Positions 7,357 through 61,523 are shown, numbered from the stretch's first letter. The stretch: DNA of 64,000 nt from an uncultured Porphyromonas sp. (GCF_938046015.1 NZ_CALIXW010000035.1:18989-82988), one strand, 5' to 3'. The notes: generated from the letters alone by a model not told the origin. Numbers and translations are program-made.

Positions 7357-7397
7357 CCTTATCCCTCAGCGTGCTGACTGGCGTCCCTCAGCGCTGG
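7357..7397. repeat. short array (2 units) of the 22-bp near-palindromic GAGGGAYRTCMGTCAG-family repeat
   Basis: ccttatccctcagcgtgctgactggcgtccctcagcgctgg. Same unit family as at the other intergenic loci listed below. Confidence 0.7.
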
Positions 7398-7758
7398 ATA
7401 TTATATTACTTTTCCCGGCTTGAGTTAGCGCGCAGCTCGCTCCGACTGGGGTCGCAGTGCGTCCCGTCTAGGCTGTCCGATCGCTTATCCTTGATGCTGA
7501 GCGTCTTGGCGCGCTGCTTGCCTCCTAGTCTCCTTGCCCTCGGCAGGCCTTGAGTGCCCAGTCTGTGCGGGGCTTGGAGGCCTGTGTGGGGCGCCTTGCT
7601 CGGAGTGGCCGCGCGCTCGGACGGCGGGGGAGGTGTCAGCCGTCATAGAGGAGGGCTTAGGCTGCAGGCTTGGGCTGAGGACTCGGGATGGCTCGGGGAA
7701 CTGGGGTCAGCCCCGTGCTCGGGCTGGGAGCTGGCTTGTGATTGTGCACCCTTTTCCG

Positions 7759-7766
7759 TATCTTTG
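7759..7766 (+). promoter_or_regulatory. candidate Bacteroidetes -7 box TATCTTTG for yceD-rpmF
   Basis: TAnnTTTG motif 35 bp upstream of the ATG at 7801. Confidence 0.45.
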
Positions 7767-7800
7767 TGGCGATTTTTATAAATAGCTGAAGGAGCCTCAC

Positions 7801-8340
7801 ATGCATACCGATCTATATAAAGTGAACCTCAGGAGCCTCTCCGAGGGGGATCACGAGCTACACTGGGTGCTAGGGGATGACTATTTCCAGCACCTGGGTG
7901 CCGAGGACTTCACCTCGGGAGAGGTGTATGTCGATGTGTACATTCATCACATCGGAGGGGTCTTCAGCCTGGAGCTAGAGTACGATGGCTACGTGGGGAC
8001 GACCTGCGATCGCTGCCTCGATCCGCTGGAGCTGGACGTGTACACCGAGCGCGAGCTGGTGGTGAAGTTCGGCGACGAGCATCGCGAGGAGAGTGAGAAG
8101 CTCCTGATCATCCCCGAGCAAGACGGCGTCCTCGACCTGACGTGGACGATGTACGAGGATATCGTGCTGAGCCTACCTATGCAGCGTATGCATGAGGAGG
8201 GTGAGTGCAATGAGGACATGATGCGCGCCTACAGCAAGGTGGCGGCAGACGAGCCTCAGCCCCAGCAGCAGGAGATCGTCCGCGATGAGGACGGCATCGA
8301 TGAGCGCTGGGCGGCACTGAAGCAACTGAAGCAAGAGTAG
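7801..8340 (+). CDS. yceD: YceD/DUF177 family protein (large ribosomal subunit accumulation protein), upstream of rpmF
   Basis: 179 aa with acidic C-terminus and a CDRCL...C motif. Sits immediately 5' of rpmF in the conserved position. Confidence 0.75.
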   Translation: MHTDLYKVNLRSLSEGDHELHWVLGDDYFQHLGAEDFTSGEVYVDVYIHHIGGVFSLELEYDGYVGTTCDRCLDPLELDVYTERELVVKFGDEHREESEKLLIIPEQDGVLDLTWTMYEDIVLSLPMQRMHEEGECNEDMMRAYSKVAADEPQPQQQEIVRDEDGIDERWAALKQLKQE

Positions 8341-8363
8341 TAATTCAAAACAAAAATAGACTT

Positions 8364-8540
8364 ATGGCACATCCTAAGAGAAGACAGTCCAAGACCCGTA
8401 CCGCCAAGCGTCGTACGCATGACAAGGCAGCAATGCCTACGCTAGCTAAGTGCGCTAACTGCGGTGAGTGGCACGTGTACCACACCGTATGTGGCGCCTG
8501 CGGCTACTACCGTGGCAAGCTCGCTATCGAGCAGGACTAG
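8364..8540 (+). CDS. rpmF: 50S ribosomal protein L32
   Basis: Translated by hand as MAHPKRRQSKTRTAKRRTHDKAAMPTLAKCANCGEWHVYHTVCGACGYYRGKLAIEQD (58 aa). Classic L32 N-terminus and zinc-ribbon cysteines. Absent from the ORF track because it is under 60 aa. Confidence 0.9.
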   Translation: MAHPKRRQSKTRTAKRRTHDKAAMPTLAKCANCGEWHVYHTVCGACGYYRGKLAIEQD

Positions 8541-8561
8541 GCTAAGACCCCACTTGCGAAA

Positions 8562-8594
8562 GAAGCCCCAAGGACTCCTTTGGGGCTTTTTTCG
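8562..8594 (+). terminator. intrinsic terminator after rpmF
   Basis: Hairpin ccccaagga/ctcc/tcctttgggg followed by TTTTTTC. Confidence 0.6.
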
Positions 8595-8654
8595 TATCTT
8601 CGTGCTACATTGCATCTGCTAGGATCATAACTCTAAGAACTATCATAACTGACT

Positions 8655-9656
8655 ATGAGCATAATCAACGCAGCCATCACAGCCGTCGGCGGCTACCTGC
8701 CAGAGGACAAGCTGACCAATGCCGACCTGGAGAAGCTGGTCGATACCAATGATGAATGGATCACTACGCGCGTGGGGATCAAGGAGCGTCGCGTCCTCAA
8801 GGACCCGACTAAGGGCGCCGCTTACCTCGGGGTGCAGGCCGTCCAGGACCTCCTCTCCCGAAGCGGCATCGATCCTAAGACCATCGATGGGCTCATCCTG
8901 ACGACTAATACAGGCGACCATACCTTCCCGACGACGGCCTCCATCGTGGCGCACGATACGGGCTGTGTCAATGCCTTTACCTTCGACCTCGTCTCCGCCT
9001 GCCCAGGCTTTATCTACGCGCTGGAGACGGGGGCTAACTACATCCGCTCGGGCCGCTACAAGCGTGTCCTCGTCGTCGCAGCGGAGAAGATGACGGCCTT
9101 CGTCGACTACACCGACCGCGCTACCTGCCCCCTCTTCGGCGACGGCGCGGGCTGCGTGCTCCTCGAGCCTACCGAGGAGGCCTGCGGGGTGATGGACGCT
9201 AGCTTCCACACCGATGGCATCGGGCGTAACAACCTCATCCTCCGTGCTGGGGGCTCGGTCAACCCTGCTTCGCACGAGACCGTCGAGGCACGTCAGCACT
9301 ACATCTATCAGGAGGGCGCTGCGGTCTTCAAGCACGCCGTCAAGGGCATGTCCTCCAGCTGCCGCGACATCATGCAGCGCAATGGCCTGAGCTACGAAGA
9401 CGTAGCCTGGGTCGTACCGCACCAGGCCAACCTCCGCATCATCGACGCCGTGGCGCGTGAGATGAAGGTGCCTATGGAGCGCGTGATGGTCAATATCGAG
9501 TACCGTGGCAATACGAGCTCGGCGACGATCCCCCTATGCCTCTGGGAGTTCGAGAAGAAGCTCCACAAGGGCGACAACCTGATCCTGACCTCCTTCGGCG
9601 CAGGCTTCACCTGGGGTGCCGTCTACGTCAAGTGGGCCTACGAGCCTAAGCACTAA
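8655..9656 (+). CDS. fabH: 3-oxoacyl-ACP synthase III
   Basis: 333 aa. Active-site Cys context DLVSACPGF. Typical KAS III length and motifs. Confidence 0.9.
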   Translation: MSIINAAITAVGGYLPEDKLTNADLEKLVDTNDEWITTRVGIKERRVLKDPTKGAAYLGVQAVQDLLSRSGIDPKTIDGLILTTNTGDHTFPTTASIVAHDTGCVNAFTFDLVSACPGFIYALETGANYIRSGRYKRVLVVAAEKMTAFVDYTDRATCPLFGDGAGCVLLEPTEEACGVMDASFHTDGIGRNNLILRAGGSVNPASHETVEARQHYIYQEGAAVFKHAVKGMSSSCRDIMQRNGLSYEDVAWVVPHQANLRIIDAVAREMKVPMERVMVNIEYRGNTSSATIPLCLWEFEKKLHKGDNLILTSFGAGFTWGAVYVKWAYEPKH

Positions 9657-12093: not shown

Positions 12094-12137
12094 AAAGCCC
12101 CCTAGCGTCACTCGGACGCTAGGGGGCTTTCTGTTTT
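12094..12137. terminator. bidirectional intrinsic terminator between convergent der and pgk
   Basis: aagccccctagcgtc/actcg/gacgctagggggctt followed by tctgtttt. The reverse strand is also T-rich after the stem. Confidence 0.65.
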
Positions 12138-12156
12138 GCTTAGCTCAGCGAGGGGC

Positions 12157-13419
12157 TTATTCCTCGATAGCAGCGATACCGGGGAGCTTCTTGCCCTCGA
12201 TGGCCTCGAGGAGGGCACCGCCACCGGTGGAGACGTAGGATACCTTGTCGGCGTAGCCGAACTTGTTGACGCAGGCTACGCTGTCGCCACCACCCACGAG
12301 GGAGAAGGCACCCTTAGCCGTAGCCTCAGCGATGGCAGCAGCCACAGCACGCGAGCCGTCGGCGAAGTTGTCCATCTCGAAGACACCCGTAGGACCGTTC
12401 CAGAGGATGGTCTTGGACTCGAGGATGACCTTACGGTAGGCCTCGATGCTGTCGGGGCCGATGTCCATACCGATCCAGCCTGCGGGGATGTTGTCGTTCT
12501 GCGCGAAGGCGGTCTTAGCGTCGTTGCTGAAGGCGTCGGCGATCTTGGAGTCCGTGGAGAGGACGAGGTTCACGCCGTTGGCCTTGGCCTTAGCGACGAT
12601 CTCGCGTGCCAGGTCGAGCTTATCCTCTTCGCAGAGCGAGGCACCGATGTTGCCGCCGTTGGCCTTGAAGAAGGTGTAGGTCATAGCACCGGTGAGGATG
12701 AGGTTGTCGACCTTACCCAGCAGGTTCTCGATGATGTCGATCTTGGACGATACCTTGGATCCACCCATGATGGCGGTGAAGGGGCGCTTGATGTCCTGCA
12801 GCACCTTGTTGACGGCGTCGACCTCCTTACCCATGAGGTAGCCGAAGAGCTTGTGGTCGGCGTCGAAGTAAGCAGCGATGAGGGCCGTGGAGGCGTGTGC
12901 GCGGTGTGCCGTACCGAAGGCGTCGTTGACATAGACGTCAGCCAGAGCAGCGAGCTTCTTGGTGAACTCCTTCTGGCTCTCCTTAATGGCCTTCTTGGCA
13001 GCGGCCTTCTCTTCGTCCGTAGCGTCCTCAGCCAGGCCGCGGGGCTTGCCTTCCTCCTCAGCGTAGAAGCGGAGGTTCTCCAGCAGGAGGGCCTCACCGG
13101 GCTTGAGGTTGGCTGCGAGTTCGCGCGCCTCCTCGCCTACGCAGTCGGGGGCGAACTTGACGTCTACACCAAGGCACTTGGAGACGTGGGCGAGGATGTG
13201 GCGGAGAGAGAACTTATCCTCGACCTTCTTGGGACGGCCGAGGTGCGAACCGATGATGACGGAGCCACCGTCGGCAAGGATCTTCTTGAGCGTAGGCATG
13301 GCAGCACGGATACGCGTATCGTCCGTGATGTTGAAGTCTGCGTCCAGGGGCACGTTGAAGTCCACGCGGACGAAAGCCTTCTTGCCTGCGAAATTGAACT
13401 GGTCAATGTTCATGTGCAA
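12157..13419 (-). CDS. pgk: phosphoglycerate kinase
   Basis: 420 aa. N-terminus [19 protein letters not shown] and the hinge/ATP motifs of Pgk. An alternative start is 6 nt downstream (MNIDQ). Confidence 0.9.
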
Positions 13420-13456
13420 TCTTGTTTAACGTTAATTGTAAAAGCTTTTACCAGCG

Positions 13457-13464
13457 CAAAAATA
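13457..13464 (-). promoter_or_regulatory. candidate -7 box (TATTTTTG on the - strand) for pgk
   Basis: TAnnTTTG motif about 37 bp upstream of the pgk ATG. Confidence 0.45.
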
Positions 13465-13611
13465 CGGAATTGCGGTGACTTAGCCCGCGTGTCGCGCCTA
13501 GGCTCGAAACCGATGGATATCAGGCCGAAGGATCGACTGGGTGCGCTCTGATATTTACCACAGAATATGGCTGAGTGGAATTGCTAGGCCTTGCCTATAT
13601 CTTGCTGGGTC

Positions 13612-14823
13612 TAGGGTATGCGTCGCGGGCTGATCGGTGTGGGGCGTGGCGAAGGACTAAGGCGGGGGTAGTGCTGGGGTGGGTAGGATAAGCCCCAGCG
13701 GGGCGACCCGATCAAAGCCCAGGGTGAGCAGCCCTGGAAGGGCGACCAAACCCTGGGTAGCCCGAGGTAAAAAGGATAGAGCCCTACAGGGGCGATCCAT
13801 AAAGCAGTTATAGCGCTGTCGCTAGTTTCACTCCGCTTTTGCTTTCGTTTGTTTTGAGGGTCGCCCCTGTAGGGCTCTTTAAGTATGGAGCTGCTTGCCC
13901 CAGGGTTCCGTCACACCTGCAGCGTTCCCTCACCCTGGGCTTTGGAAGGGAGCACCCCGCAGGGGCTTGCGCGGCCGCTCGTACTTAGCTTGGTTTAGGG
14001 TATGCGTCGCGGGCTGATTGGTGTGGTGCGTGGCGAAGGACTAAGGCGGGGCAGTGCTGGGGTGGGTAGGATAAGCCCCAGCGTGGCCACCCGATCAAAG
14101 CCCAGGGTGAGCAGCCCTGGAAGGGCGACCAAACCCTGGGTAGCCCGAGGTAAAAAGGATAGAGCCCTACAGGGGCGATCCATAAAGCAGTTATAGCGCT
14201 GTCGCTAGTTTCACTCCGCTTTTGCTTTCGTTTGTTTTGAGGGTCGCCCCTGTAGGGCTCTTTAAGTATGGAGCTGCTTGCCCCAGGGTTCCGTCACACC
14301 TGCAGCGTTCCCTCACCCTGGGCTTTGGAAGGGAGCACCCCGCAGGGGCTTGCGCGGCCGCTCGTACTTAGCTTGGTGTAGGGTATGCGTCGCGGACTGC
14401 TTGATGTGGTGCGTGGTGAAGGGCTAAAGCGGGGGCGGTGCTGGGGCGGGTAGGATAAGCCCCAGCGGGGCGACCCGATCAAAGCCCAGGGTGCGCAGCC
14501 CTGCAAGGGCGACCAAACCCTGGGTAGCCCGAGGCAAGAAGGATAGAGCCCTACAGGGGCGATCCTTAAAGTAGCTGTAGTGCTGTAGGTAGTTTCACTC
14601 CGACTTTGCTTTTGTTCGCTTGACGGGTCGCCCCTGTAGGGCTCGTTAAGTATGGGCGGTTTGACCCAGGGTTCCGTCACGCCTGCAGCGTTCCCTCACC
14701 CTGGGCTTTGGAAGGGGTCGCCCCGCAGGGGCTTGCGCGGCCGTTCGTACTTAGCTTGGTTTAGGGTATGCGTCGCGGGCTGCTTGATGTGGTGCGTGGT
14801 GAAGGGCTAAGGCGGGCTCGGCC
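13612..14823. repeat. tandem array of about 3.2 copies of a ~384-bp non-coding unit built from nested hairpins
   Basis: The string tagggtatgcgtcgcgg recurs at 13612, 13996, 14379 and 14762 (period 383-384). Copies 1 and 2 are nearly identical; copy 3 is more diverged. Each unit holds a 20-bp perfect inverted repeat (agagccctacaggggcgacc ... ggtcgcccctgtagggctct) around a ~58-nt loop, plus two cccagggt...accctggg hairpins. Confidence 0.9.
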
Positions 14824-14995
14824 GAGGGATAGTAGTCTGGACGCTGAGGGATAGCAGCCAGCAGGCTGAGAGACCGAAGAGGGGCGGTTAAGGGGTATTG
14901 GTCAGGACGCTGAGGGATAGCAGTTAGGGTGCTGAGGGACGTCAGTGGCGCGCGTGAGGGCTATCGGTTACGGTGCTGAGGGCTATCAGTCAAGG
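14824..14995. repeat. array of about 8 tandem 22-bp GAGGGA-YR-TC-family units
   Basis: gagggatagtagtctggacgct / gagggatagcagccagcaggct / ... / gagggctatcagtcaaggtgg, directly abutting the 384-bp array. Confidence 0.8.
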
Positions 14996-15189
14996 TGGTT
15001 GGGGGCAGGTGGGGAGGTCGCCCTGGCTCCTTCGAGGCGTCCCTGCGTCCCTTGGGACAGAGGGCGGACGAGGTACACTTACTCCGCACCCAAGCAAATG
15101 AAGAGCAGCGCCCCCTACCGACCGAGCCTAGGCTGGGGCGATAGGGGGCGCTGCTGTGGCGAGGGGATGAAGCCTGCGCTATCCTAGGG

Positions 15190-18799: not shown

Positions 18800-19051
18800 C
18801 TATTCCTCGTCCTTCAGCTCATCGATGAGCTCCTGCGTCTCATCGGTCAGGCGATTGCGATAGCGCTGATAGCGTTCCTTGGCTTCGTAGTAGCCCTCGA
18901 CGATGCTGTCACGGGCGCGCTCTACAGAGCTGGATACATTATCTGCGAAGAGCTCGCGCTTACGACGGTCAGAGAAGTAAGCGGCGGCTGCACCTGCTGC
19001 GGCTCCAATGAGCACACCGAGGAAGAAATTCCCCTTCGAACAATTAGCCAT
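18800..19051 (-). CDS. YtxH-like small stress protein (DUF948-like)
   Basis: 83 aa. N-terminal TM helix GNFFLGVLIGAAAGAAAAYF followed by a charged coiled tail; YtxH family architecture. Confidence 0.55.
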   Translation of the reverse strand: MANCSKGNFFLGVLIGAAAGAAAAYFSDRRKRELFADNVSSSVERARDSIVEGYYEAKERYQRYRNRLTDETQELIDELKDEE

Positions 19052-19251
19052 ATCCGTAATCCTTAGTAAATGGGTGAATGTGTCTAGCGTCTTTCGCTGC
19101 TGTAAAGATAGCGTAATTCTCTCAATTCCTCCTAGTGCCCCTGATCCGCCTCGCGGCTGGCTGCTCCTCTAGGCTGCCAGTGCCCGCCGCGCCTTGCTCC
19201 TGGCTGGAGGGCGCAGGGCGCGCCGTGGGGCCCGCTCCTAGGGAGGGCGCT

Positions 19252-19355
19252 CTGATGGGTATCCGTCAGAGCCTTGAGGGACGTCCCTCAGAGGAGTGAG
19301 GGGTATCCCTCGGACGGCTGAGGACTATCGGTCAGTGAGCCGAGGGCTATTGCTT
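19252..19355. repeat. array of about 5 units of the 22-bp near-palindromic repeat
   Basis: gggtatccgtcagagcctt / gagggacgtccctcagaggagt / gaggggtatccctcggacggct / gaggactatcggtcagtgagcc. Confidence 0.8.
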
Positions 19356-19603
19356 CGCCGCGCGAGCTCTATCCATGAGCCTTGCTTGTCCTCCCAGTCG
19401 ATTGCGTACGTCCAACCAATCAGCCCAGCGCAGTCTATCAACCAGCCAGTGCAGCCTGCTAACTAACCCAGTGAGCTCCATCCCTCGGGCAGCCCAGCAG
19501 CCGTCTCCTGCCGCGTGCCCCTCGGGCGCTGCCTTCCTTTACCCGCTGCGAGCGAGGAGGGGAGCGCGAAGCTATAGAGTAAGCCTCCTTTGATCCCTGC
19601 TAT

Positions 19604-19965
19604 TCGCTAAGGTCAAGCGGCTGAGTAAGCCCTAGTGGGACGATCTGTGTCACTCGCTAAGGTCAAGCGGCTTGCTAAGCCCCAGCGGGGCGATCCGTGC
19701 AAAGCCCAGGGTGAGGGAACGCTGTAGGTGTGACGGAACCCTGGGTTAAGTTCCCCAAACATAAAGAGCCCTACAGGGGCGACCCTTAGACGGAGCAGCT
19801 GTGAAGTCGGAGCAGCATTCCTCGGCGCTGCGAGCGTTTTAAGGGTCGCCCCTGTAGGGCTTCATAGCTATTTATCTAGCCTACCCAGGGTTTGGTCGCC
19901 CTGGCAGGGCTACGCACCCTGGGCTTTGTATGGGTCGCCCCGTTGGGGCTTGTCCTCCCCGTTTG
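19604..19965. repeat. rearranged, inverted copy of the 384-bp element, with a 45-bp tandem duplication of its aagccccagcggggcga module
   Basis: Contains the reverse complement of the ccccagggttccgtcacacctgcagcgttccctcaccctgggcttt module. Keeps the same 20-bp perfect stem agagccctacaggggcgacc/gggtcgcccctgtagggct, but with a different ~58-nt loop. Also carries the reverse complement of the caaagcccagggtgagcagccctgg...ccctggg module. Confidence 0.8.
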
Positions 19966-20103
19966 AGCAAGCTAGAGGGGAGAATACTTATTCCTCGAGG
20001 GGCTACGTCTAGGTAAAGCTCGAAGTGCTCTTCCTCTATACCCAGTTCGACGTATACATTAGCTCTGAGAGGAGGCGTGCGTAGGCGGGGCTTAGGCTAG
20101 GGA

Positions 20104-20153
20104 CAAAAAAAGCGCGTCCCGAGACCAGACGCCTGGGGCGTGGTCTCGGGACG
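20104..20153 (-). terminator. intrinsic terminator downstream of gapA
   Basis: Hairpin gcgtcccgagaccagacgcctggggcgtggtctcgggacgc with an A8 run on the + strand (T8 on the - strand) immediately 3'. Confidence 0.7.
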
Positions 20154-20178
20154 CTCGTGATAGCGGGGTGTCGGGCGA

Positions 20179-21195
<1,017 letters not shown>

Positions 21196-21272
21196 TTATA
21201 CGTGAATACTATTTATACTGCTTTGGTGCGCTGGTCGAGGCAGCCCGTAGGGCATACCCGCCTTTTGCTCCG

Positions 21273-21280
21273 CAAATTTA
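21273..21280 (-). promoter_or_regulatory. possible -7 box (TAAATTTG on the - strand) for gapA
   Basis: TAnnTTTG motif about 90 bp upstream of the gap ATG, implying a long leader. Confidence 0.3.
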
Positions 21281-21413
21281 CGGAAATTTATCCACATCAC
21301 CTAAGCGCTGCTAGGTCTCGGTGCATAATCTCCTCCCGCCTCGCTCAGCTGGGGGCGAGACTCGCGGTCGAAGGCGCGTCAGAGGGGCTCTAAGCCAAGG
21401 GGAAAAGGGCTCC

Positions 21414-21500
21414 TGAGGGATATCCGTCAGACGCCCGACGGACGGCAGTCAGCGCCGTGAGGGACGGCAGTCAGCGGGCTGAGGGCTATCCCTCGCGGCG
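21414..21500. repeat. array of about 4 units of the 22-bp near-palindromic repeat
   Basis: gagggatatccgtcagacgccc / gacggacggcagtcagcgccgt / gagggacggcagtcagcgggct / gagggctatccctcgcgg. Confidence 0.8.
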
Positions 21501-21630
21501 TGAGCAGCGGACTCTTGCCGCGCTGAGCTGCCTAAGCGGCCTTGCTTGAGGCCGCTTGGACAGCTGTCGTGGTGCTTATGGGGAGGGGAAATCGCCCTTG
21601 GTCGGGGAGGAGGGGGCGCTTACGCAGCGC

Positions 21631-22569
21631 TTAGGCCAAGGGGGCTGTGGGGGCCTCGAGGAGGGCCAGGGCGGACTCGAGGAGGTCGGGGGCGCTGGCG
21701 TCGAGCCAATGGATGGAGGGGTCGCGCTGCCACCAGCTGAGCTGCTTGCGGGCATAGTGGCGGCTGTTGCGCTGGATGAGGCGGATGGCCTCGGCGCGGT
21801 CGATGGTGCCATCGAAGTAGGCGAAGAGCTCCTTGTAGCCTACGGTGTTCAGCGCGTTGAGCTCGCGGTAGGGGTAGACGGCGCGCGCCTCGGCCTCCAG
21901 CCCCACCTCGAGCATCAGCTCCACACGCCGATCTATGCGGGCGTAGAGCTCGGGGCGTGGGCGCTGGAGCCCGACCCTCAGGATGCGGAAGGGGCGCTGC
22001 TTGGGCTCCCCTCGGTGGTAGCTGGTGAAGGGGCGGCCCGTGGCGAGGTAGACCTCCCAGGCATGGAGGAGGCGCTTGTAGTTGGCTGGGTCGACCTGGC
22101 TCAGATAGTCGGGGTCGACCCGCTCCAGCTCCTGGCGTATGCCCTCTAGCCCCTCGGCCTCGTAGCGCTGCCAGACGGCACGGCGCAGCTCCTCGGGCAC
22201 GCTGGGCACGGCGTCGAGCCCGCGGCAGAGCGCATCGACGTACATCATCGAGCCGCCCGAGACGAGGACGACGGGATGCTCCGCGAAGAGTCCCGCGAGC
22301 GTCTCCAGCGCCTCCTGCTCGTAGTCGGAGGCGCTGTAGTAGTCGTGGATGCTGTGTGTGCCTACGAAGTAATGAGGTACAGCCGCTCGCTCCTCTAGGG
22401 AGGGGGCAGCTGTGCCTATAGGGAGCTCGCGGTAGATCTGCCGCGAGTCAGCCGAGAGGATGCTCGTGGAGAGGCGCTGCGCCAGGCGGATACTTAGCTC
22501 CGTCTTGCCTACCCCCGTGGCCCCCACGAGGACTAGGAGCAGCGGGCTGCTAGTAGAGGCTCTCGGCAT
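21631..22569 (-). CDS. miaA: tRNA dimethylallyltransferase
   Basis: P-loop GATGVGKTELS...LSADSRQIYRELPIGTAAP. Start placed at an internal Met (MPRAST) because the 51 codons upstream are low-complexity and overlap the upstream gene. The ORF extends to 22620. Confidence 0.85.
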   Translation of the reverse strand: MPRASTSSPLLLVLVGATGVGKTELSIRLAQRLSTSILSADSRQIYRELPIGTAAPSLEERAAVPHYFVGTHSIHDYYSASDYEQEALETLAGLFAEHPVVLVSGGSMMYVDALCRGLDAVPSVPEELRRAVWQRYEAEGLEGIRQELERVDPDYLSQVDPANYKRLLHAWEVYLATGRPFTSYHRGEPKQRPFRILRVGLQRPRPELYARIDRRVELMLEVGLEAEARAVYPYRELNALNTVGYKELFAYFDGTIDRAEAIRLIQRNSRHYARKQLSWWQRDPSIHWLDASAPDLLESALALLEAPTAPLA

Positions 22570-23095
22570 CCGCGATATCGAAGCCCTCGAGGTCAAGCTC
22601 ATCCTCGCTGAAGGACTCATCCCCGAAGTCCTCGCCCTCGAAGGGCGTCCCAGAGATGGCCGCAGCGCGTGTCAGCGACTCCTCGAAGGAGGCGATCTGC
22701 TTCGGCGCCTTGCCCTCACTGAGGATCATCTGGGGGGTCTCGAGGCTCTTGCCTGGCTGCAGCTCCTCGACCTCGATGAAGAGGCCGCGCTCACTGAGCA
22801 TGTCGAAGACGAAGAAGAGGTGGTCGCCACGGCGCTCGAGCTTGTCCTCCAGCAGCGTGTCGGCCATCAGCAGGCTGTCCTCGTCGGGGCGTGAGCCCAT
22901 GTCCATGCGGGTGATCTCCTCCTCCTTCTGCCAGTCCTCGTCGCAGACGTAGAAGCTCGTCAGCTCGTCGGGACGGTAGCCCAGGCTGTCGAGGATGAAG
23001 TCATTGAGCTGCAGGAAGCTCGCCTCGGAGTCGATGAGTAGCTCGCGGCGGAAGAAGTCGTTCTCGTCCGAGAGCAGGGATAGACGGTATACCAT
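22550..23095 (-). CDS. hypothetical acidic protein, possibly pRiA4b ORF-3-like family
   Basis: 181 aa with a highly acidic C-terminus (EGEDFGDESFSEDELDLEGFDIADAESLY). No confident family recognised by eye. Confidence 0.35.
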   Translation of the reverse strand: MVYRLSLLSDENDFFRRELLIDSEASFLQLNDFILDSLGYRPDELTSFYVCDEDWQKEEEITRMDMGSRPDEDSLLMADTLLEDKLERRGDHLFFVFDMLSERGLFIEVEELQPGKSLETPQMILSEGKAPKQIASFEESLTRAAAISGTPFEGEDFGDESFSEDELDLEGFDIADAESLY

Positions 23096-23173
23096 AATAT
23101 AGGTGGATCTAGGTGCGGGCGCGCCCCAGCAGCAGCGCCCCCGTGCTGGGTGCTAGGCGCTGCTACGGGTGCG

Positions 23174-24934
23174 CTACTTGGGCTGCGTGAGGGAGAGGCA
23201 GAGCTCGTCGAGCTGCTCCTGGTCGATGAGCGAGGGCGCATCGATCATCACGTCGCGGCCAGAGTTATTCTTGGGGAAGGCGATACAGTCACGGATGCTG
23301 TCCAGCCCAGCGAAGAGCGAGACGAAGCGATCCAGCCCGTAGGCCAGCCCGCCGTGGGGAGGAGCCCCGTACTTGAAGGCATTCATCAGGAAGCCGAACT
23401 GCTCCTGAGCCTTCTCTGGGGTGAAGCCGAGGAGGTCGAACATCTGTGCCTGCAGCCCGCTGTCGTGGATACGGATCGAGCCACCGCCGACCTCGACGCC
23501 GTTGATGACCATGTCGTAGGCATTGGCACGCACGGCTCCTGGGTCGGTCGCCAGTAGGGGGATGTCCTCGGGCTTGGGTGAGGTGAAGGGGTGGTGCATG
23601 GCGTAGAAGCGCTGCGTCTCCTCATCCCACTCGAAGAGCGGGAAGTCCACCACCCAGAGGCAGGAGAACTGGCGCTTGTCTCTGAGCCCGAGCTGCGAGC
23701 CCAGCTCAAGCCGGAGCTCGCAGAGCTGCTTGCGTACCTTCATCGGCTCGTCCCCCGAGAGGATGAGGATGAGGTCGCCGGGTACGGCCTGCATCTTGGA
23801 GGCCAGTGCCTGCAGCGTCTCCTGGCTGTAGAACTTGTCCACGCTGCTCTTGACCGTGCCGTCGGCCTCGACGCGTGCGTAGACCATCCCCTTAGCACCG
23901 ATCTGCGGGCGCTTGACGAAGTCCGTCAGGGCATCCAGCTGCTTACGCGTGTAGCTGGCGGTACCCTGGGCACAGATGCCCCCGATGTAGGCGGCATCGT
24001 CGAAGACCCCGAAGCCGAAGCCCGAGAGCGTATCCTTGAGCTCTACAAACTCCATGCCAAAGCGCGTGTCGGGCTTGTCCGACCCGTAGCGGCTCATCGC
24101 CTCCTGCCAGCTCATGCGGGGGAAGGGAGTGGTGACCTCCACGCCCAGCAGCTCCTGGAAGAGGTACTTCGTCATGCCCTCGAAGATGGTCAGCACGTCC
24201 TCCTGCTCCACGAAGCTCATCTCGCAGTCGATCTGCGTGAACTCGGGCTGGCGGTCGGCGCGCAGGTCTTCGTCGCGGAAGCACTTGACGATCTGGAAGT
24301 AGCGGTCGAAGCCGCTGACCATCAGCAGCTGCTTGAAGGTCTGCGGTGACTGCGGCAGGGCGTAGAACTGATTGGGGTTCATGCGCGAGGGCACGACGAA
24401 GTCGCGGGCGCCCTCAGGGGTAGACTTGATCAGTACGGGCGTCTCGACCTCGAGGAAGCCCTGGGCGTCGAGGTAGCGACGTACGGCTAGGGCGAAGCGG
24501 TGACGCAGCTCGAGGTTGGAGCGCACGCAGCTGCGGCGTAGGTCGAGGTAGCGGTACTTCATACGCAGGTCATCACCGCCGTCGGTCTCGTCCTCGATGG
24601 TGAAGGGGGGGACCTCCGAGGCGTTGAGCACGCTGAGGCGCTCGACGAGGATCTCGATGTCGCCCGTGTCGAGCTTGGGGTTCTTGTTCTCACGCTCGGC
24701 GACCTTGCCCGAGACCTGGATGACGTATTCGCGTCCCAGCTTCTCAGCCTGGGCGATGAGGTCGGGGCCGACGAGGCTCTCGTTGAAGACCAGCTGCGTG
24801 ATGCCGTAGCGGTCACGCAGATCGACGAAGATCATGCCGCCCATGCGACGTGCCTTCTGTACCCAGCCGGCGAGCGTGACCTGCTCCCCGACCTGGCTGA
24901 GGCGCAGCGCGCCGCAGGTAGTAGTGCGATACAT
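23174..24934 (-). CDS. aspS: aspartate--tRNA ligase
   Basis: 586 aa. Class II aaRS motifs [18 protein letters not shown] and GGGSIRIH, with an N-terminal OB fold. Confidence 0.92.
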
Positions 24935-24967
24935 AGCTATATCTATTGTATGGTGTTGTCTCTAGCG

Positions 24968-24975
24968 CAAAAGTA
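24968..24975 (-). promoter_or_regulatory. candidate -7 box (TACTTTTG on the - strand) for aspS
   Basis: TAnnTTTG motif about 34 bp upstream of the aspS ATG. Confidence 0.45.
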
Positions 24976-25199
24976 CGAAGAATTGACCGACCGCGCCCTG
25001 CCGTGCGCCTTCGGCCCTGAGCTGCTTAGGCTGTAGACTCAGCCCGCCTAGCGCTGAGGCGCCCTGAGCCCCTCGGGGCTGGATAGCGAGGAGGCCACCG
25101 AGCAGGGTCGCTCGGTGGCCTCTATAGGGCGCTTAGGCCTTGTCTGTCTCCCGCCGCTGCTTACTCTAGGAGGGAGGTAGCGGCGCGGGAGCTAGAGCT

Positions 25200-25799
25200 C
25201 TAGAGCCTAATCCCGTACTGCAGCTCCAGGAGGATGGGGGTCTCGCCTCTCTGGCTGCTCGAGGACCAAAACTTCGTGCCATCATACATGTGTATGCGGT
25301 TACGAACGTAGCCCAGCCCTAGGGCGGTGCGCAGGTAGCTCTTTTGGCTCAGCCCGAAGGTCCATCCGAAGCTCAGGGCTCGGCCAAGGCTATAGTCTGT
25401 CCACATATACTCGCTTGGCTTGGGGCCGAAGAGGGAGAGCTTGTTTCCTCCCTCGATTGCTAGGCGGAAGCTCAGATAGCCCCCCTTCTGATAGTAGGGG
25501 CTGGTGGAGGCCTTGGAGAAGTACCAGCGTGGGGCGAACTCTAGGTAAGGGGCTAGACCGCTGAAGTTCAGCTCTCCCTTCCCGCTAGCCCCTTTGCTAT
25601 AGCCTAGCCCGATAGCCAAGCCTGTCCGAGCGGTGAGGGAGAAGCGGCGAGAGAGTCGGAACTCGTAGCTGAGCCCATTATGGGAGCCGAGCTCGAAGCC
25701 GTACTGGTGGCGCTGCAGGGGAGCCTCAGCCTCCTGCGCTAGGAGTGTGCCTGTCCCAAGGGCTAGGGTGAGCCCTAGCTGTAGGATCGTTTTCTTCAT
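25200..25799 (-). CDS. small outer-membrane beta-barrel-like protein (DUF3575-like), with signal peptide
   Basis: Start placed at MKKTILQLGLTLALGTGTLLAQ. Alternating hydrophobic beta-strand pattern and a C-terminal aromatic-rich end. The ORF extends to 25853. Confidence 0.45.
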   Translation of the reverse strand: MKKTILQLGLTLALGTGTLLAQEAEAPLQRHQYGFELGSHNGLSYEFRLSRRFSLTARTGLAIGLGYSKGASGKGELNFSGLAPYLEFAPRWYFSKASTSPYYQKGGYLSFRLAIEGGNKLSLFGPKPSEYMWTDYSLGRALSFGWTFGLSQKSYLRTALGLGYVRNRIHMYDGTKFWSSSSQRGETPILLELQYGIRL

Positions 25800-26047
25800 A
25801 TTGATCTTAATATGTAGTGTAGCTGACAGCCTCCCTGCGGGTGCAGGGGGCACCCGTCGCTTCGCCTCCTAGGCGAGTGGCGGGGTGTAGCAGAGGCAAA
25901 GATATAGGAATTATCCGCACAGCGCAAGGCGCTGGTGTCACGAAGGGCGCAGGAGGCTAAGACGGATGCTCTTAGCCCCCTGCGCTTGGGGAGAGAGGAG
26001 GGTCGTGCTAGGCTTGGCGGCGGGCTTCGGGATGGGGGCGGCTCGGG

Positions 26048-28464: not shown

Positions 28465-28610
28465 AGATTGGAATAGCTAAATACGTCTTTATTCGTCTGC
28501 AGGGATAGAACCGCCCTTGTGGGCAAAAGGTTACGAGCCCTGTGCCCTACCTGTCGCACGGCTGCTTCCCCTAGGCTTACCGCCCGAGCGCGGCTGTGGG
28601 GGAGGCTTCT

Positions 28611-28696
28611 TGAGGGATATCAGTCAGCGCCGTGAGGGACGTCTGTCAGGTGCGTCAGGGACGTCCGTCAGCGCCGTGAGAGATATCCCTCAGCGC
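28611..28696. repeat. array of 4 units of the 22-bp near-palindromic repeat, including a perfect palindromic end unit
   Basis: tgagggatatcagtcagcgccg / tgagggacgtctgtcaggtgcg / tcagggacgtccgtcagcgccg / tgagagatatccctcagcgc. Confidence 0.85.
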
Positions 28697-36579: not shown

Positions 36580-36890
36580 ACGGAGCGTGTGCGATGCTGA
36601 CCTAGAGCGAGGACACATAGCTGAGCTATACCTGGTGATGACGATGGGTGCTATCGTAGACGCGTCCAGAGGGCTCGCGCGCAGGATAGCTTATATATAT
36701 ATTACAATGCAACAAAGATACGGCTTTTCCCAAAGGGAAGACGTGCCCAGAGCTCAGGTGACAGCCCGTACTGGAGGAATTTAGTTCAAGGGGTGAGCTC
36801 CTACCCTGCCTTCGGTGGCTCCCCCACGGCCTCTTAGGGGTGGGCGAAGCTCCTCATAAGGCACGCCGCTCGTCCCCCTAGGCTCGGGCG

Positions 36891-36953
36891 GTCGGCACTG
36901 CCGTCCCTGAGCCGCGCGACTGATAGCAGTCGGCGCCGTGACGGATAGCTCGG
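36891..36953. repeat. diverged copy of the 22-bp unit array
   Basis: gtcggcactgccgtccctgagccgcg / cgactgatagcagtcggcgccgtgacggatagctcgg. Confidence 0.5.
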
Positions 36954-39972: not shown

Positions 39973-40117
39973 GGCAAAATCGTCCAGCCAGCCCCGAGCC
40001 GCGCCCTCGGCTCGGACGCAGCGCCTCCTCGCCTCCTCTAGGAGCCCTGCCCTGCCTGGGGCTGGAGTCCAGGGGCAAAGCTACTCCGCTGAAGCCGAGG
40101 CTCAAGGGGGAGGGAGC

Positions 40118-40205
40118 GTGAGGGATATCCGTCAGCTCCGTGAGGGATGTCAGTCAGGCGCGCGAGGGACGTCAGTCAGCCTCTCGAGGGATATCCCTCA
40201 GAGCG
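40118..40205. repeat. array of 4 units of the 22-bp near-palindromic repeat
   Basis: gtgagggatatccgtcagctcc / gtgagggatgtcagtcaggcgcgc / gagggacgtcagtcagcctctc / gagggatatccctcagagcg. Confidence 0.85.
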
Positions 40206-44821: not shown

Positions 44822-45063
44822 GTTTATTCGTTGTTTGCTATCTGCACGGCTATCCTGGCGCGGACAGCACTAGATGTAAAGGTAACAAAAAACATGCCAT
44901 CCCGGTTGCCCCTGTCAGCTCTGAGGCTGCTGGGTGAGCCTTCGGGGGCTCACATCCTGCGTCCTCGGCGGGCACCCTGTGCCGCCCTTAGCTGCCTCTG
45001 CGAGCGCTGTGGGGCGGGGCCCTCGACGAGCAGCGCGTGCGCGGAGCCCTTGCTGGGGCTAGG

Positions 45064-45170
45064 CTGACCGATATCCCTGGGGCAGCTGACTGATACCCAT
45101 CGCGCGGCTGAGGGATACCCCTCGGCTAGGCTAAGGGATATCCGTCAGCGCTCTGAGGGATATCCGTGAT
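45064..45170. repeat. array of about 5 units of the 22-bp near-palindromic repeat
   Basis: ctgaccgatatccctggggcag / ctgactgatacccatcgcgcgg / ctgagggatacccctcggctaggct / aagggatatccgtcagcgctct / gagggatatccgtgatg. Confidence 0.8.
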
Positions 45171-45271
45171 GAAGGTGAGGGGGAAGGGGGGACGGAGCCA
45201 CCGCGCGCTCGCCGCGAGGAAGCCCCCTAGGACGAGCGGGCTGGCCCGTCCCGTGTACGCGGATATTGTCG

Positions 45272-55571: not shown

Positions 55572-55660
55572 GTGTCTTCCCCTCCTGCTCCTCACCCCGC
55601 CTCGCGCCTAGAGAAGGGGACGAAGCGCCCCCGCAGAGTCTCGAGCTAAAGGGGAGGACC

Positions 55661-55746
55661 CGTGAGGGATATCAGTGGACGCCGTGAGGGTCGTCCGTCA
55701 GCACCGTGAGGGACGTCAGTCAGCAGGATGAGGGATATCCCTCACG
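55661..55746. repeat. array of 4 units of the 22-bp near-palindromic repeat
   Basis: gtgagggatatcagtggacgcc / gtgagggtcgtccgtcagcacc / gtgagggacgtcagtcagcaggat / gagggatatccctcacgg. Confidence 0.85.
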
Positions 55747-56004
55747 GAGCCAGCAGGGAGCACTTGGCGTCCGCCCTGCCCTTTGGGGGCGAGCGGAGCA
55801 GTCGCGAGGGGTGGGTTTGGAGCTACGTCTTGCCTTCGCTCGGCGTAGGGTGGGCGTGTGGCGCGCTGGGAGATGGGAATCTTTACACTTCGGGGGCTTG
55901 CTTTCAAAAACTTACCTGAGCACCTCAGCAGCCCGCTCGGACGAGCTGCCGAGCCCAAGGGTGCTAGAGGCTCAGTGGGGACTTTGTAGTTCGGCGAAAT
56001 AGCC

Positions 56005-59572: not shown

Positions 59573-59577
59573 TGTGA

Positions 59578-61179
59578 ATGCTCTCTATGAAAAAGTATAG
59601 ACTATGGGCCCTCGCAGCATGCGCCCTCTCGCTGACTGCACTGCCCTCATGTAAGAGTGATCTGCTGGACCTCAAGCCCATTGACCACTACGGCACCAAC
59701 AACTACTGGAACAACCTCGCTCAGGTAGAGGCGAACTACCAGGCCCTCAATGGTATCCTGCGCAACAACTACTCTGTCTTCCGCGTCTTTGGCGAGCTGC
59801 GCGCCGGTACGATGAAGTTCACCGTATCGGCCACAGGCGAGAGTCAGTCCTCCGTGGAGGTAAAGCAGAGCGTCCTGGATGCTGACCGTCCTGGGATCTC
59901 CAACTGGGGCGGCCTCTACGGTGACCTGCTGCACATCAACCTCTTCATCAAGAAGGTAGAGACGCAGTGCCCCTTCCTCACGGACGCCGAGCGCAAGACC
60001 TACCTAGGTAAGGCCTACGGTATCCGCGCCTACATCTACTTCGTGCTCTACAAGAGCTACGGGGGGGTAGTCCTCGAGACGGAGCCCCGTGTAGCCGAGG
60101 AGGCGATCACCGACCCCACGAGCTACCACAAGGCGCGCTCCTCGGCTGAGGAGACGCTGGACTTCATCAAGAAGGATGTAGAGAAGTCCTCCGAGCTGTT
60201 GGCCACGAGCCCCTGGAAGAGCATCAAGACCGAGTGGTCGCGTGCTGCTACCGAGCTCCTCAAGGCTGAGGTCTACCTCTGGTCGGCTAAGGTGACTACG
60301 GGCAACCATACCGCCACGGGTGAGGCTGACCTGCGCAAGGCGAAGACCGCCCTCGAGGGTATCGTCGGCAGCCAGGCCTTCGACCTGGAGGATAAGTTCG
60401 CTGCGAACTTCGACGCCAAGAAGAAGAACGGTAAGGAGATCATCCTCAACCTCTACTTCGACCGCCAGGAGGCCACCAATGACTACGGTCACTACATGTA
60501 CCAGAACCGTCTCTTCGTAGGCTCGGCCCGCGATAAGAACGGGGTGCTCTTCCCTGGGGATACGCTCAAGGCGATGAGCACGGGGATCCTCTACAACGAG
60601 TACAAGCCTAGCTTCGTGGCTAGCTTCGATGAGGATGACACGCGTCGTAGCGCTACCTTCTTCGAGTTCACGGTCGGTACGCCAGGCAACCTGCTCCCCG
60701 GCTCGGTATTCCTCAAGTATCAGGGACAGCTCTATTCGGACAATGCGCACATCTATGACAGCAATGTCATCCTCTACCGCTATGCCGATGTCCTGCTACT
60801 GCTGGCTGAGGTGAAGAATGCCCTGGGCGAAGATCCCTCGGCGGAGCTCAACCTGATCCGCAAGCGTGCCTTCGGGACGAAGTTCGCAGGGCATGAGTTC
60901 GTCAGCGGCGACTTCGCAGCCAACGAGCTGGCTATCCTCAAGGAGCGTGACCACGAGTTCGCAGGGGAGTACAAGCGCTGGTATGACCTGCTTCGTCTGC
61001 AGGATGCCAGCAAGCAACCCCTGGTCTTCTCCGCTGCTGCTGCTTACTCCGACGACCATCTGACGGGGACAGCTCCTACGCCTATCCTCAAGACGACGGA
61101 GCGTCAGAAGCTCCTCTGGCCTGTGGACCGCACGGTGCTCAATAACGACCCGCTGATCAAGCAGACCGAGGGCTACTAA
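59578..61179 (+). CDS. SusD/RagB-family nutrient-binding outer-membrane lipoprotein
   Basis: 533 aa. Lipoprotein signal (LTALPSCKSD) and TPR-like SusD fold. Starts 6 bp after susC. An alternative start is MKKYRLW at 59587. Confidence 0.85.
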   Translation: MLSMKKYRLWALAACALSLTALPSCKSDLLDLKPIDHYGTNNYWNNLAQVEANYQALNGILRNNYSVFRVFGELRAGTMKFTVSATGESQSSVEVKQSVLDADRPGISNWGGLYGDLLHINLFIKKVETQCPFLTDAERKTYLGKAYGIRAYIYFVLYKSYGGVVLETEPRVAEEAITDPTSYHKARSSAEETLDFIKKDVEKSSELLATSPWKSIKTEWSRAATELLKAEVYLWSAKVTTGNHTATGEADLRKAKTALEGIVGSQAFDLEDKFAANFDAKKKNGKEIILNLYFDRQEATNDYGHYMYQNRLFVGSARDKNGVLFPGDTLKAMSTGILYNEYKPSFVASFDEDDTRRSATFFEFTVGTPGNLLPGSVFLKYQGQLYSDNAHIYDSNVILYRYADVLLLLAEVKNALGEDPSAELNLIRKRAFGTKFAGHEFVSGDFAANELAILKERDHEFAGEYKRWYDLLRLQDASKQPLVFSAAAAYSDDHLTGTAPTPILKTTERQKLLWPVDRTVLNNDPLIKQTEGY

Positions 61180-61228
61180 GCCTATCATCTACGGGGGAGG
61201 CTCTTTGGAGCCCCGCCCCCCTTCCTAG

Positions 61229-61284
61229 CGCAGCGGCCGCAGCTGTCCCGTCGAGACGGGCACTGCGGCCGCTGCCCTTTTTTG
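61229..61284 (+). terminator. intrinsic terminator after the SusD-like gene
   Basis: gcagcggccgcag ... ctgcggccgctgc followed by ccttttttgtg. Confidence 0.65.
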
Positions 61285-61437
61285 TGCCTTGGAGGCTGGC
61301 GTGGCTGGGGGCGTGTCGGCCTCTGGTAGGGCGGATTTCGTCTGGGGCGTCCTCTCTGTAGGCTAGCTTCGCCTCGTCTTGCTCTTCGTCTCGTCCTCCT
61401 TGCCCTTTGCCTTTCTCCTACTATATCCTAGGCGCTT

Positions 61438-61523
61438 TGACTGATATCCCTCAGCGCTCTGACTGACGTCCCTCAGTCTCGTCCCCCTTATCCCTCAGCA
61501 GGCTGACTGATGTCCCTCAGCGC
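61438..61523. repeat. array of 4 units of the 22-bp near-palindromic repeat (opposite orientation)
   Basis: ctgactgatatccctcagcgctct / gactgacgtccctcagtctcgtcc / cccttatccctcagcaggct / gactgatgtccctcagcgcggtg. Confidence 0.85.

Follow-up and report, generated by a model that had tools for sequence, protein, structure and literature searches.

A dispersed element of four tandem 22-bp palindromes in the intergenic DNA of an uncultured Porphyromonas-related lineage

Introduction

What are the short tandem arrays of palindromes that recur between the genes of an otherwise ordinary bacterial chromosome? The question is raised by a stretch of 64,000 nucleotides from an uncultured Porphyromonas sp. 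(NZ_CALIXW010000035.1:18989-82988), which as a whole is called the window below. A preliminary description of its sequence noticed a dispersed family of tandem, near-palindromic 22-bp units and offered as explanations an element like the repetitive extragenic palindromic (REP) sequences and bacterial interspersed mosaic elements (BIMEs), binding sites related to an architectural protein or to restriction-modification (R-M), and terminators or insulators of transcription. Short dispersed palindromic repeats have been studied extensively in Proteobacteria and very little in Bacteroidales, which are dominant in the human oral and gut microbiota. We report that each array is a copy of a single discrete element, non-coding and ~100 bp long, and we describe its anatomy, its copy number, its restriction to intergenic DNA and to one lineage, its age and positional stability, and the constraint on its cores. 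The reading that we favor, with a probability of about 0.45, is that the element originated as a mobile element and is parked between transcription units as a protein-recognition platform of four dyads.

Results

The motif GAGGGAYRTCMGTCAG was searched in the window with up to 3 mismatches, and the count was compared with that in 100 dinucleotide-preserving shuffles of the window. There were 54 matches versus 4.27 ± 2.08 expected, a number that 0 of the 100 shuffles reached, and Tandem Repeats Finder called period-22 arrays at 14820, 14909, 19253, 21412, 28611, 40120, 45062, 55660, and 61423; two more copies, at 7357 and 36891, remain recognizable by sequence although they are shorter or degenerate. 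The existence of a dispersed 22-bp family is borne out by these counts and calls. Motif matches inside open reading frames (ORFs; those at 11635, 26450, 31317, 33566, 63505, and similar ones) were few, each had 3 mismatches, and they stayed at chance level. All 11 arrays lie in intergenic DNA, though this makes up 17% of the window according to a rough gene map that was drawn with longest-ORF and third-codon-position GC (GC3) criteria and checked with Pfam and NCBIfam. Every window gap of at least 420 bp holds an array, and no gap below 400 bp does. The resulting density is ~1 array per 6 kb (11 loci in 64 kb), among chromosomal housekeeping genes that include era, der, fabH, lgt, efp, ftsH, cdsA, tsaD, aspS, gapA, miaA, mnmA, a lacZ-type gene, and susC/susD. 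The near-palindromic cores, the occurrence in both orientations, and the intergenic placement had thus been described correctly; the arrays had also been said to lie usually between convergent or divergent genes, which does not hold, since 8 of the 10 occupied gaps separate co-directional genes and 2 separate divergent ones.

The same arrays are present in independent assemblies. One contig (locus L001, ERZ28659109; comparison loci are numbered with the prefix L) is 99.96% identical to the window across 21.7 kb, four arrays included, and six contigs of other samples, 94-96% identical to the window, have arrays at corresponding sites. Assembly artifacts therefore do not explain the arrays. The window and 115 metagenome loci were combined into a pooled sample of ~0.97 Mb of lineage DNA from several strains, in which 153 of 157 arrays were intergenic and an array was rarely nearer than ~90 nt to an ORF. 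The median distance between array and ORF was ~160-250 nt on both sides, with a median of ~160-190 nt to stop codons, and 24 arrays were located in divergent promoter gaps. Spacing from unit to unit was exactly 22 bp in 491 of 628 cases, the remainder being mostly multiples of 22.

Exactly four units were counted in 117 of the 166 arrays of the pooled sample, so that the modal array has four units and not the 2-8 given in the preliminary description. A position-specific consensus was built from 95 unique four-unit copies. An imperfect palindrome of 18 bp, CTGAGGGAYRTCMGTCAG, and behind it a free spacer of 4 nt make up the 22-bp module, and the modules are arranged head-to-tail; each unit is preceded by CT (variable nnnnCT), the spacers consisting of four poorly conserved, G+C-rich bases. 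The consensus reads GAGGGATATCAGTCAG for unit 1, with a GATATC center, GAGGGACGTCCGTCAG for unit 2, with a GACGTC center, GAGGGATAGCAGTCAG for unit 3, which is more mixed and has GATAGC or a mixed sequence at its center, and GAGGGATATCCCTCA[G/C] for unit 4 (core GATATCCCTCA[GC]), which is a perfect palindrome. The statement that arrays often end in a perfect palindrome thereby stands for the terminal palindrome and becomes more precise, as it is specifically the last unit that has this form. Two half-site types can be distinguished, A (CTGAGGGAT) and B (CTGACKGAT), with units 1-3 being A-B' and unit 4 being A-A'. The outer half-sites of units 1 and 4 form a 12-bp inverted repeat, CTGAGGGATATC ... 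GATATCCCTCAG, and a conserved leader lies outside it: YTARGGGGAGG (11 nt), which starts 17 nt before unit 1 in about half of the 95 copies and which is found in intergenic DNA almost only beside arrays. Conservation around the element ends at ~-17 and +5. The preliminary description had overlooked that the architecture is fixed at four units, that there is a leader, and that the cores are under constraint. An argument made from the period, that 22 bp corresponds to two helical turns, is weak and not compelling by itself, because the period equals palindrome plus spacer and analogous arrays of relatives have 21, 22, or 23 bp.

With its four units, leader, and free spacers, the element has an unusually clean anatomy that permits a direct measurement of selection on the cores. 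Nine independent orthologous pairs, for which orthology was judged on the distal flanks only, differed at 41/630 core positions (0.065), 15/153 leader positions (0.098), 154/927 proximal flank positions (0.166), and 23/108 spacer positions (0.213). The cores thus change ~3 times more slowly (core versus flank, p = 1e-9; core versus spacer, p = 7e-6), and a less strict earlier grouping of orthologues gave the same ranking. Because the spacers are in register within the element, alignment error cannot account for the contrast between core and spacer. We conclude that the cores are held by purifying constraint or, less likely, by gene conversion among copies.

The nature of this constraint was approached through covariation. 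No compensatory signal was obtained for the stems within units, the observed Watson-Crick frequencies being those expected for independent columns, and the dominant A-B' units have two fixed mismatches; both results argue against selection for a hairpin as such. Predicted folding of both strands was better than that of shuffles (z -1.4 to -4.6), as it must be for any array of palindromes. The sole covariation involves the adjacent central dinucleotide (TA 250, CG 114, TG 10, CA 4), whose two bases cannot pair with each other in a hairpin, and a change between TA and CG keeps the dyad symmetry of the duplex. Taken together, the sequence evidence favors a mode of action in which the cores would be recognized sequence-specifically at the DNA level.

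The shared four-unit, position-specific design indicates that the element multiplied as a whole and was not expanded locally from single units. Non-orthologous copies were 79% identical in their cores, 40% in their spacers (34% expected from composition), and 30% in their flanks, with 92% identity for the best paralogous pair, and by this measure the copies are old. No empty site was encountered in 169 flank-anchored orthologous comparisons (BLAST with 300-bp and 1200-bp flanks, strains ~95% identical), each examined array being at the shared site. Orthologous arrays differed in length by 22-bp steps, equivalent to gain or loss of single units, and other indels were unrelated. Target-site duplications did not exceed those in shuffled pairings of the 95 copies (all offsets, k = 3-8), and no transposase was detected in the window or between closely spaced arrays, where the genes are metK, sodB, a patatin-like gene, and similar ones. 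Gene order in Porphyromonas sp. oral taxon 278, the uncultured Porphyromonas, and a Porphyromonadaceae metagenome-assembled genome (MAG) breaks beyond aspS-miaA, so that no orthologous empty site is definable there.

Array orientation followed neither GC skew, nor the majority coding strand, nor that of neighboring arrays; relative to flanking co-directional genes there was a weak bias, with the C-rich strand in sense in 45 versus 29 cases. The logo of the 3' flank contains no T-run, and terminator-like sites fall elsewhere. At the loci 19000-30000 and 36620-37075, a hairpin-plus-T terminator of the upstream gene itself adjoins the stop codon, as exemplified by 20132-20105 after gapA and by a strong hairpin at ~37000-37060. 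Given the missing T-run, the missing orientation bias, the distance of at least 90 nt from stop codons, and the separate terminators at these two inspected loci, the terminator proposed in the preliminary description is not sustained. A scan for sigma-70-type promoters gave 0 sites, and the Bacteroidetes -7 box (TAnnTTTG) is strongly enriched in intergenic DNA and is not part of the element consensus. Searches of Rfam gave no match at the gathering threshold and, at an E-value threshold, only spurious MIR398 matches on a different repeat with a long hairpin. Outside the arrays GATATC occurs 215 times versus 221 expected (0.97) and GACGTC 353 times versus 332 (1.06); because neither sequence is avoided there, the suggested R-M sites are unsupported. 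Iteron-like or phased-regulator arrays, which had also been mentioned, are unlikely because the elements lie so densely beside unrelated housekeeping genes. The results of these tests together disfavor terminator, promoter, small-RNA, local-operator, and R-M explanations.

SusC/SusD assign the window to Bacteroidota. It has 63% GC, compared with 52-57% for its nearest named relatives. Its exact AspS protein was found only in metagenome assemblies of the European Nucleotide Archive (ENA); the nearest named relatives, a 'Porphyromonadaceae bacterium' MAG and an 'uncultured Porphyromonas sp.', have AspS proteins 89-90% identical to it, and for GAPDH the window and Porphyromonas sp. oral taxon 278 share 97% identity. 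The exact two-unit pattern had 0 matches in 185,579 species-representative genomes (one per species), 0 in viral contigs, and none in 72,556 plasmids, and it was present in more than 115 metagenome contigs of ~62% GC. This confinement to metagenome contigs leads us to assign the element to one uncultured high-GC lineage related to Porphyromonas, at least one member of which (L139) has an AspS gene only 83% identical at the DNA level. The lineage is common in metagenome assemblies, and this together with its GC content relative to that of its relatives (L200-L203, L003) suggests an unbinned or uncultured organism with a marked GC shift.

The comparison with related genomes gave analogous arrays on different palindromes, the motif itself being lineage-restricted. 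In Porphyromonas sp. oral taxon 278 the window motif is absent, and three arrays with a period of 22-23 bp, flanked by A- and T-runs, occur within 21 kb on the palindromes ACCTACNGTRGGT (twice) and AACGTATACGTT; in the relatives with 52% GC, arrays comprise five to seven units of ACCAATATTGGT, ACCTATATAGGT, or ACCACTATTGGT. Non-overlapping tandem repeats of at least 2.5 copies were then tabulated for the surroundings of GAPDH in 80 loci (1.29 Mb), mainly of Bacteroidales genomes. Their periods peak at 21-23 bp (17 arrays), with none at 17, 19, 25, or 26 bp. About 11 of these 17 arrays have palindromic arms of at least 6 bp, most have 3-5 units, and several mix two half-site variants (e.g., L025 and L039). 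Where a locus contains a pair of same-family arrays (L003, L025, and L039), the two are dispersed. Since relatives share the architecture on other palindromes, the window element seems to represent locally an architecture that is general in Bacteroidales. For 22-bp palindromic arrays in Bacteroidales, the literature yielded only BrickBuilt as a prior description.

The individual copies in the window are listed in Table 1.

Table 1. Copies of the element in the window, with positions counted from its first nucleotide
Copy	Position	Strand	Description
Partial copy	7350..7391	-	Leader-type unit CTGAGGGATAAGGGGGAGGG (- strand) and one unit GAGGGACGCCAGTCAG; divergent gap between a diaminopimelate (DAP)-dehydrogenase-like gene and yceD
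Short array	14820..14883	+	2-3 units: GAGGGATAGTAGTCTG, GAGGGATAGCAGCCAG, and a degenerate one; immediately follows the 383-bp tandem repeat
Four-unit array	14909..14997	+	Cores somewhat degenerate
Four-unit array	19237..19335	+	Leader variant CTAGGGAGGG at -17
Four-unit array	21395..21496	+	Degenerate G-rich leader CCAAGGGGAAAAGGG; between miaA and gapA
Canonical copy	28595..28695	+	Leader TGTGGGGGAGG; unit 1 GATATC, unit 2 GACGTC, unit 3 GACGTC, unit 4 a near-perfect palindrome; gap between lacZ-type gene and ndh
Degenerate three-unit copy	36871..36952	-	G-box CTAGGGGGAC (- strand) flanks the units on the side opposite to that in canonical copies
Canonical copy	40102..40203	+	Leader TCAAGGGGGAGGG, four units, the last a perfect palindrome GAGGGATATCCCTCAG; gap between GHL10 gene and efp
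Five-unit symmetric variant	45062..45192	.	Two units with reverse half-site order, central palindrome, two forward units, then G-rich box GAGGGGGAAGGGGGG; divergent gap between ftsH and tsaD
Canonical copy	55646..55747	+	Leader CTAAAGGGGAGG, four units, the last a perfect palindrome; gap between mnmA and susC
Four-unit array	61423..61523	-	Leader-type unit GAGGGATAAGGGGGACG in second position; downstream of susD

Several observations concern DNA beside arrays. At 3340-6180 of L112 (ERZ772949 NODE-4266), an NgoBV-type R-M pair (C5 methyltransferase and RE_NgoBV) of 2.6 kb and 43% GC forms an intergenic insertion, bounded by a ~150-bp direct duplication of local DNA that includes a whole array; its orthologues L184, L087, and L109 have a single copy and no insert. 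The arrangement looks like an "insertion with long target duplication," a type of event that has been described for R-M units in Helicobacter pylori. A low-GC cassette of 750 bp, encoding a 166-aa ORF without a Pfam match, is present at 930-2135 of L192, flanked by a ~225-bp, locus-specific direct duplication that again includes the array, with junctions placed unlike those of L112. Site-specific integration at the array was considered for these two cassettes and rejected, as the junctions differ and are not in the array and the duplicated DNA is locus-specific. Relative to its orthologue L158, L092 has a 2.6-kb insertion beside an array (6690-9335) with ORFs of 597 and 193 aa, the former protein having, by eye only, the look of an AlbA_2/ATPase type. 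At window position 36955, the 95%-identical strains L107 and L154 have an extra 104 bp beside the degenerate array, rich in CTTAGCC/CCTAGCC, and this difference is an indel of another short intergenic sequence. Arrays also coincide with assembly breaks: many metagenome contigs (among L084-L160) end within 30-300 bp of one, and in the scaffold of Porphyromonas sp. oral taxon 278 (L003, 9520-9580) a run of N directly adjoins an array.

A second repeat family occupies 13604-14816 of the window as 3.2 tandem copies of a 383-bp unit. Each unit contains a long hairpin of ~290 nt, formed by four inverted blocks nested in one another, AAGCCCCAGCGGGGC, CAAAGCCCAGGGTG, AACCCTGGG, and AGAGCCCTACAGGGGCGA, with their complements, and a single copy of the family with ~77% identity is found at 19680-19975. 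Both sites adjoin 22-bp arrays, in the two largest intergenic gaps, and the weak MIR398 matches reflect the long hairpin. At 12136-13551 of the window, long ORFs of 471 aa (+ strand, no Pfam match) and 420 aa (- strand) overlap on opposite strands. In the lineage loci from L083 on, the k-mers GGTACATAAACGGGAA, GTTGTGATTGCTAC, and GTTGGATTGC have ~30 non-coding and 0-2 coding occurrences; they may represent, in a single locus or a few, the repeat of a clustered regularly interspaced short palindromic repeat (CRISPR) array or some other repeat family.

Discussion

In the reading that we favor, some enzyme would long ago have copied the four-unit module as a whole into "dead zones" between transcription units, and the element would have kept its position ever since, the gain or loss of single units being its only change. 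Its cores would act at the DNA level as sequence-specific recognition sites. The four adjacent dyads, composed of the half-sites CTGAGGGAT and CTGACKGAT, would most likely be bound by a dimeric protein, for which the mobilizing enzyme and a host architectural factor are the candidates, and purifying constraint would keep the cores intact while spacers and flanks drift. Both the copy-and-paste spread and the binding of a protein to the cores are steps that we infer. Several points weigh against them. Neither a protein partner nor a mobilizing enzyme was found, the genes flanked by arrays being ordinary housekeeping genes, and no pair of filled and empty sites was found, so that mobility is deduced only from the shared position-specific architecture. 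The conservation of the cores could partly reflect gene conversion between copies. The TA/CG signal is largely inherited with unit identity and therefore represents few independent events, which makes it suggestive only. A spacing of 22 bp, at 2.1 helical turns, does not match the helical phase exactly. Nor is the architecture rigid, since the copies at 7350, 36871, and 45062 have the G-box differently arranged, in the first two behind the units.

The main rival is that the units are REPs proper, i.e., single-strand hairpins spread by an HUH Y1 transposase, the REP-associated tyrosine transposase (RAYT/TnpA-REP), here of a Bacteroidota subclass, with the four-hairpin cluster as the mobile entity and the leader as its cleavage or guide site. 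The unit does have the 22 nt of a short REP, with 4 nt of foot or spacer followed by two 7-bp stem segments around a 4-nt loop, imperfect stems are tolerated in known REPs, the absence of target-site duplication is expected for HUH transposition, and a conserved motif that lies 5' of the first hairpin, always equally far from it, is reminiscent of the left ends of IS200/IS605 elements; moreover, RAYT subclass 2.6 of Bacteroidota has "atypical" REPs lacking GTAG (PMC6006769). Yet tblastn detected no RAYT in the window or ~0.9 Mb of lineage DNA, the hairpin GCTAG-CGCGAGCG-NNN-CGCTCGTG that flanks Bacteroidota RAYT genes is absent from window intergenic DNA, orientation bias and stem covariation are lacking, and head-to-tail clusters are rare for known REPs (PMC3733652), so that we regard this origin as unlikely. 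That the copies are neutral MITEs (miniature transposable elements with inverted repeats), decayed, selfish, non-autonomous remnants of a DDE transposon that end in 12-bp inverted repeats (CTGAGGGATATC ... GATATCCCTCAG) and contain repeated binding sites of the transposase, would agree with the inverted repeat formed by the outer half-sites of units 1 and 4 and with a small, non-coding, multi-copy, intergenic element, and BrickBuilt, the closest published element in the genus, has been classed as a MITE with an internal 23-nt minisatellite (Klein et al. 2015, PMC4596501). It is improbable in view of a leader that lies outside the putative inverted repeats yet is part of the element, the lack of target-site duplications and of any insertion sequence or transposase with such ends in the sampled DNA, the lack of presence/absence polymorphism, and a best non-orthologous pair of only 92% identity. 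Neutral decay also does not produce cores that change 3 times more slowly than spacers and flanks and retain 79% identity beside saturated spacers.

The remaining alternatives place the function in RNA, in the adjacent genes, or in restriction. As a multi-hairpin terminator, a stabilizer of mRNA 3' ends, a Rho-loading site on the C-rich strand, or a small RNA, the element would fold as predicted on both strands (z -1.4 to -4.6), would lie downstream of many genes as the arrays do, and would explain the weak excess of the C-rich strand in sense (45 versus 29) and the A- and T-runs around the arrays of Porphyromonas sp. oral taxon 278; an RNA-level role is nonetheless quite improbable for arrays without a T-run that keep at least 90 nt from stop codons, beside which the inspected loci have separate hairpin-plus-T terminators, that occupy divergent promoter gaps in 24 cases, and that show neither stem covariation, nor an upstream -7 box in the conserved flank, nor an Rfam match. 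Four constrained dyad sites spaced by about two turns are a classic cooperative layout, as expected of an operator or iteron array for adjacent genes or of a replication or partition site. Such an assignment is very improbable given that the element recurs ~1 per 6 kb beside the unrelated genes era, der, efp, ftsH, aspS, gapA, miaA, mnmA, and susC/D, at 150-250 nt from start codons and thus beyond promoter boxes, equally often at 3' ends, and with no rep or par gene nearby. R-M-related sites, either controlled by methylation or acting as decoys, are brought to mind by cores centered on two classical 6-bp restriction palindromes (GATATC, EcoRV-type; GACGTC, AatII-type) and by the R-M gene pair inserted beside an array in L112. 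We find this barely credible: both hexamers have their expected frequency outside arrays, the inserted pair is NgoBV-type rather than EcoRV or AatII, and the junctions in L112 and L192 are not at a fixed array position and bound local duplications of 150-225 bp.

The occurrence of the same architecture on other palindromes in many Bacteroidales loci suggests that a common protein family may read such arrays, and matching array sequences with the sequences of DNA-binding proteins across genomes could identify the reader. One may go further and imagine a Bacteroidales-wide class of arrays with a 21-23-bp period and mostly 3-5 units, each lineage having its own palindrome with usually two half-site variants and a co-evolving dedicated protein, the arrays being kept as nucleoprotein platforms that mark transcription-unit boundaries. 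We consider this generalization doubtful, and if it were true, the arrays would be part of insulation, of supercoil or nucleoid organization, or of a domesticated transposase system, and not decaying junk. In practical terms, the arrays break short-read assemblies and serve as markers of the uncultured high-GC, Porphyromonas-related lineage.

Comparison with known repeat systems

Among the candidates offered at the outset, a REP/BIME-like element comes closest. REPs, for example those of E. coli and Pseudomonas, include GTAG and CGTC superfamilies (PMC3733652) and are palindromes of ~20-40 nt present in hundreds of copies. The window element shares with REPs and BIMEs a short imperfect palindrome (~20-25 nt), a high copy number, an extragenic, clustered, and species-specific occurrence, the lack of target-site duplication, and variable spacers or loops; BIMEs of Escherichia coli are bound by integration host factor (IHF), gyrase, and DNA polymerase I (Pol I). 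The likeness is incomplete, as the window units lack a 5' GTAG/CGTC tag, CGTC being present only as the palindrome center of unit 2, and are arranged head-to-tail with a 22-bp period, whereas known REPs pair up in inverted orientation (REPINs, alternating BIMEs). The leader and the set of units, fixed at four and each with the identity of its position, are further differences. Head-to-tail dimers are absent or negligible in known REP families (PMC3733652).

The RAYT genes of Bacteroidota form a subclass of their own (2.6), with atypical REPs of 24-28 nt that lack GTAG and often have GCTG/GCTAG as 5' foot (Quentin et al. 2018, PMC6006769). Searches by tblastn with four genuine Bacteroidota RAYTs gave no match in the window or in ~0.9 Mb (115+ loci) of lineage DNA from several strains, a RAYT being usually single-copy. 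The RAYT genes of two loci, L198 and L199, are flanked by inverted hairpin REPs of the form GCTAG-CGCGAGCG-NNN-CGCTCGTG, located at 3925-3955 and 4570-4600 in L198 and at 555-590 in L199 (genes of Cellulophaga lytica and Lentimicrobium sp.); L198 also has, at 5616-5729, a 38-residue duplicate fragment of the RAYT gene. The flanking REP GCTAGCGCGAGCG... is absent from window intergenic DNA, and the REPs of Bacteroides xylanisolvens are absent from the examined loci. Common to these REPs and the window units are the phylum, a similar hairpin size, and a preceding (G)CT, which is frequent in the window units; the RAYT-associated REPs differ in being single inverted hairpins on each side of a RAYT gene.

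BrickBuilt of Porphyromonas gingivalis is a minisatellite-MITE with tandem repeats of 23 nt that lies in intergenic DNA 49-591 nt from coding sequences, in ~19 copies per genome, with a leader and tail that have promoter activity and with a variable number of repeats (PMC4596501). It resembles the window element in its related host genus, its direct repeats of 22-23 nt, its intergenic and species-restricted occurrence, its leader, and its coincidence with assembly gaps. Its unit, AGAYCATARTATCCTCTCRTRTG, is without strong dyad symmetry, however, whereas the window element has a fixed set of four units, an 11-nt leader, and a density of ~1 per 6 kb. The BrickBuilt unit had 0 matches in the window at up to 3 mismatches, its IS5-type inverted repeats GAGACCTTTGCA had 0 matches at up to 1 mismatch, and leader and tail segments of up to ~300 nt are absent.

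Other systems share isolated traits. Pneumococcal BOX elements (A, B, and C modules), Correia elements (26-bp inverted repeats, TA duplication), and Neisseria intergenic mosaic elements (NIME; 20-bp dRS3 around units of 50-150 bp) are composite, intergenic, high-copy elements with dyad-symmetric modules, for which effects on neighboring transcription or a role as integration hot spots have been described; their sequences, module sizes, and hosts differ from those of the window element. Plasmid iterons and transposon ends with several binding sites (22-bp sites of TnsB or MuA) consist of 3-7 direct repeats with a period of ~22 bp that load several protomers of a protein. They lie once or twice per replicon or element near rep or transposase genes, in contrast to the 11 loci of the window, and presumably hundreds of chromosomal copies, with no rep or par gene nearby. 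CRISPR arrays have repeats of 24-48 bp and spacers of similar length, compared with 4-nt spacers and four units here. The best reading of these comparisons is that the element is a lineage-specific, REP/BIME-like dispersed repeat and neither BrickBuilt nor a canonical REP. What is new within this kind is the fixed architecture of four tandem palindromes, the short G-rich leader, and the demonstrable constraint on the cores.

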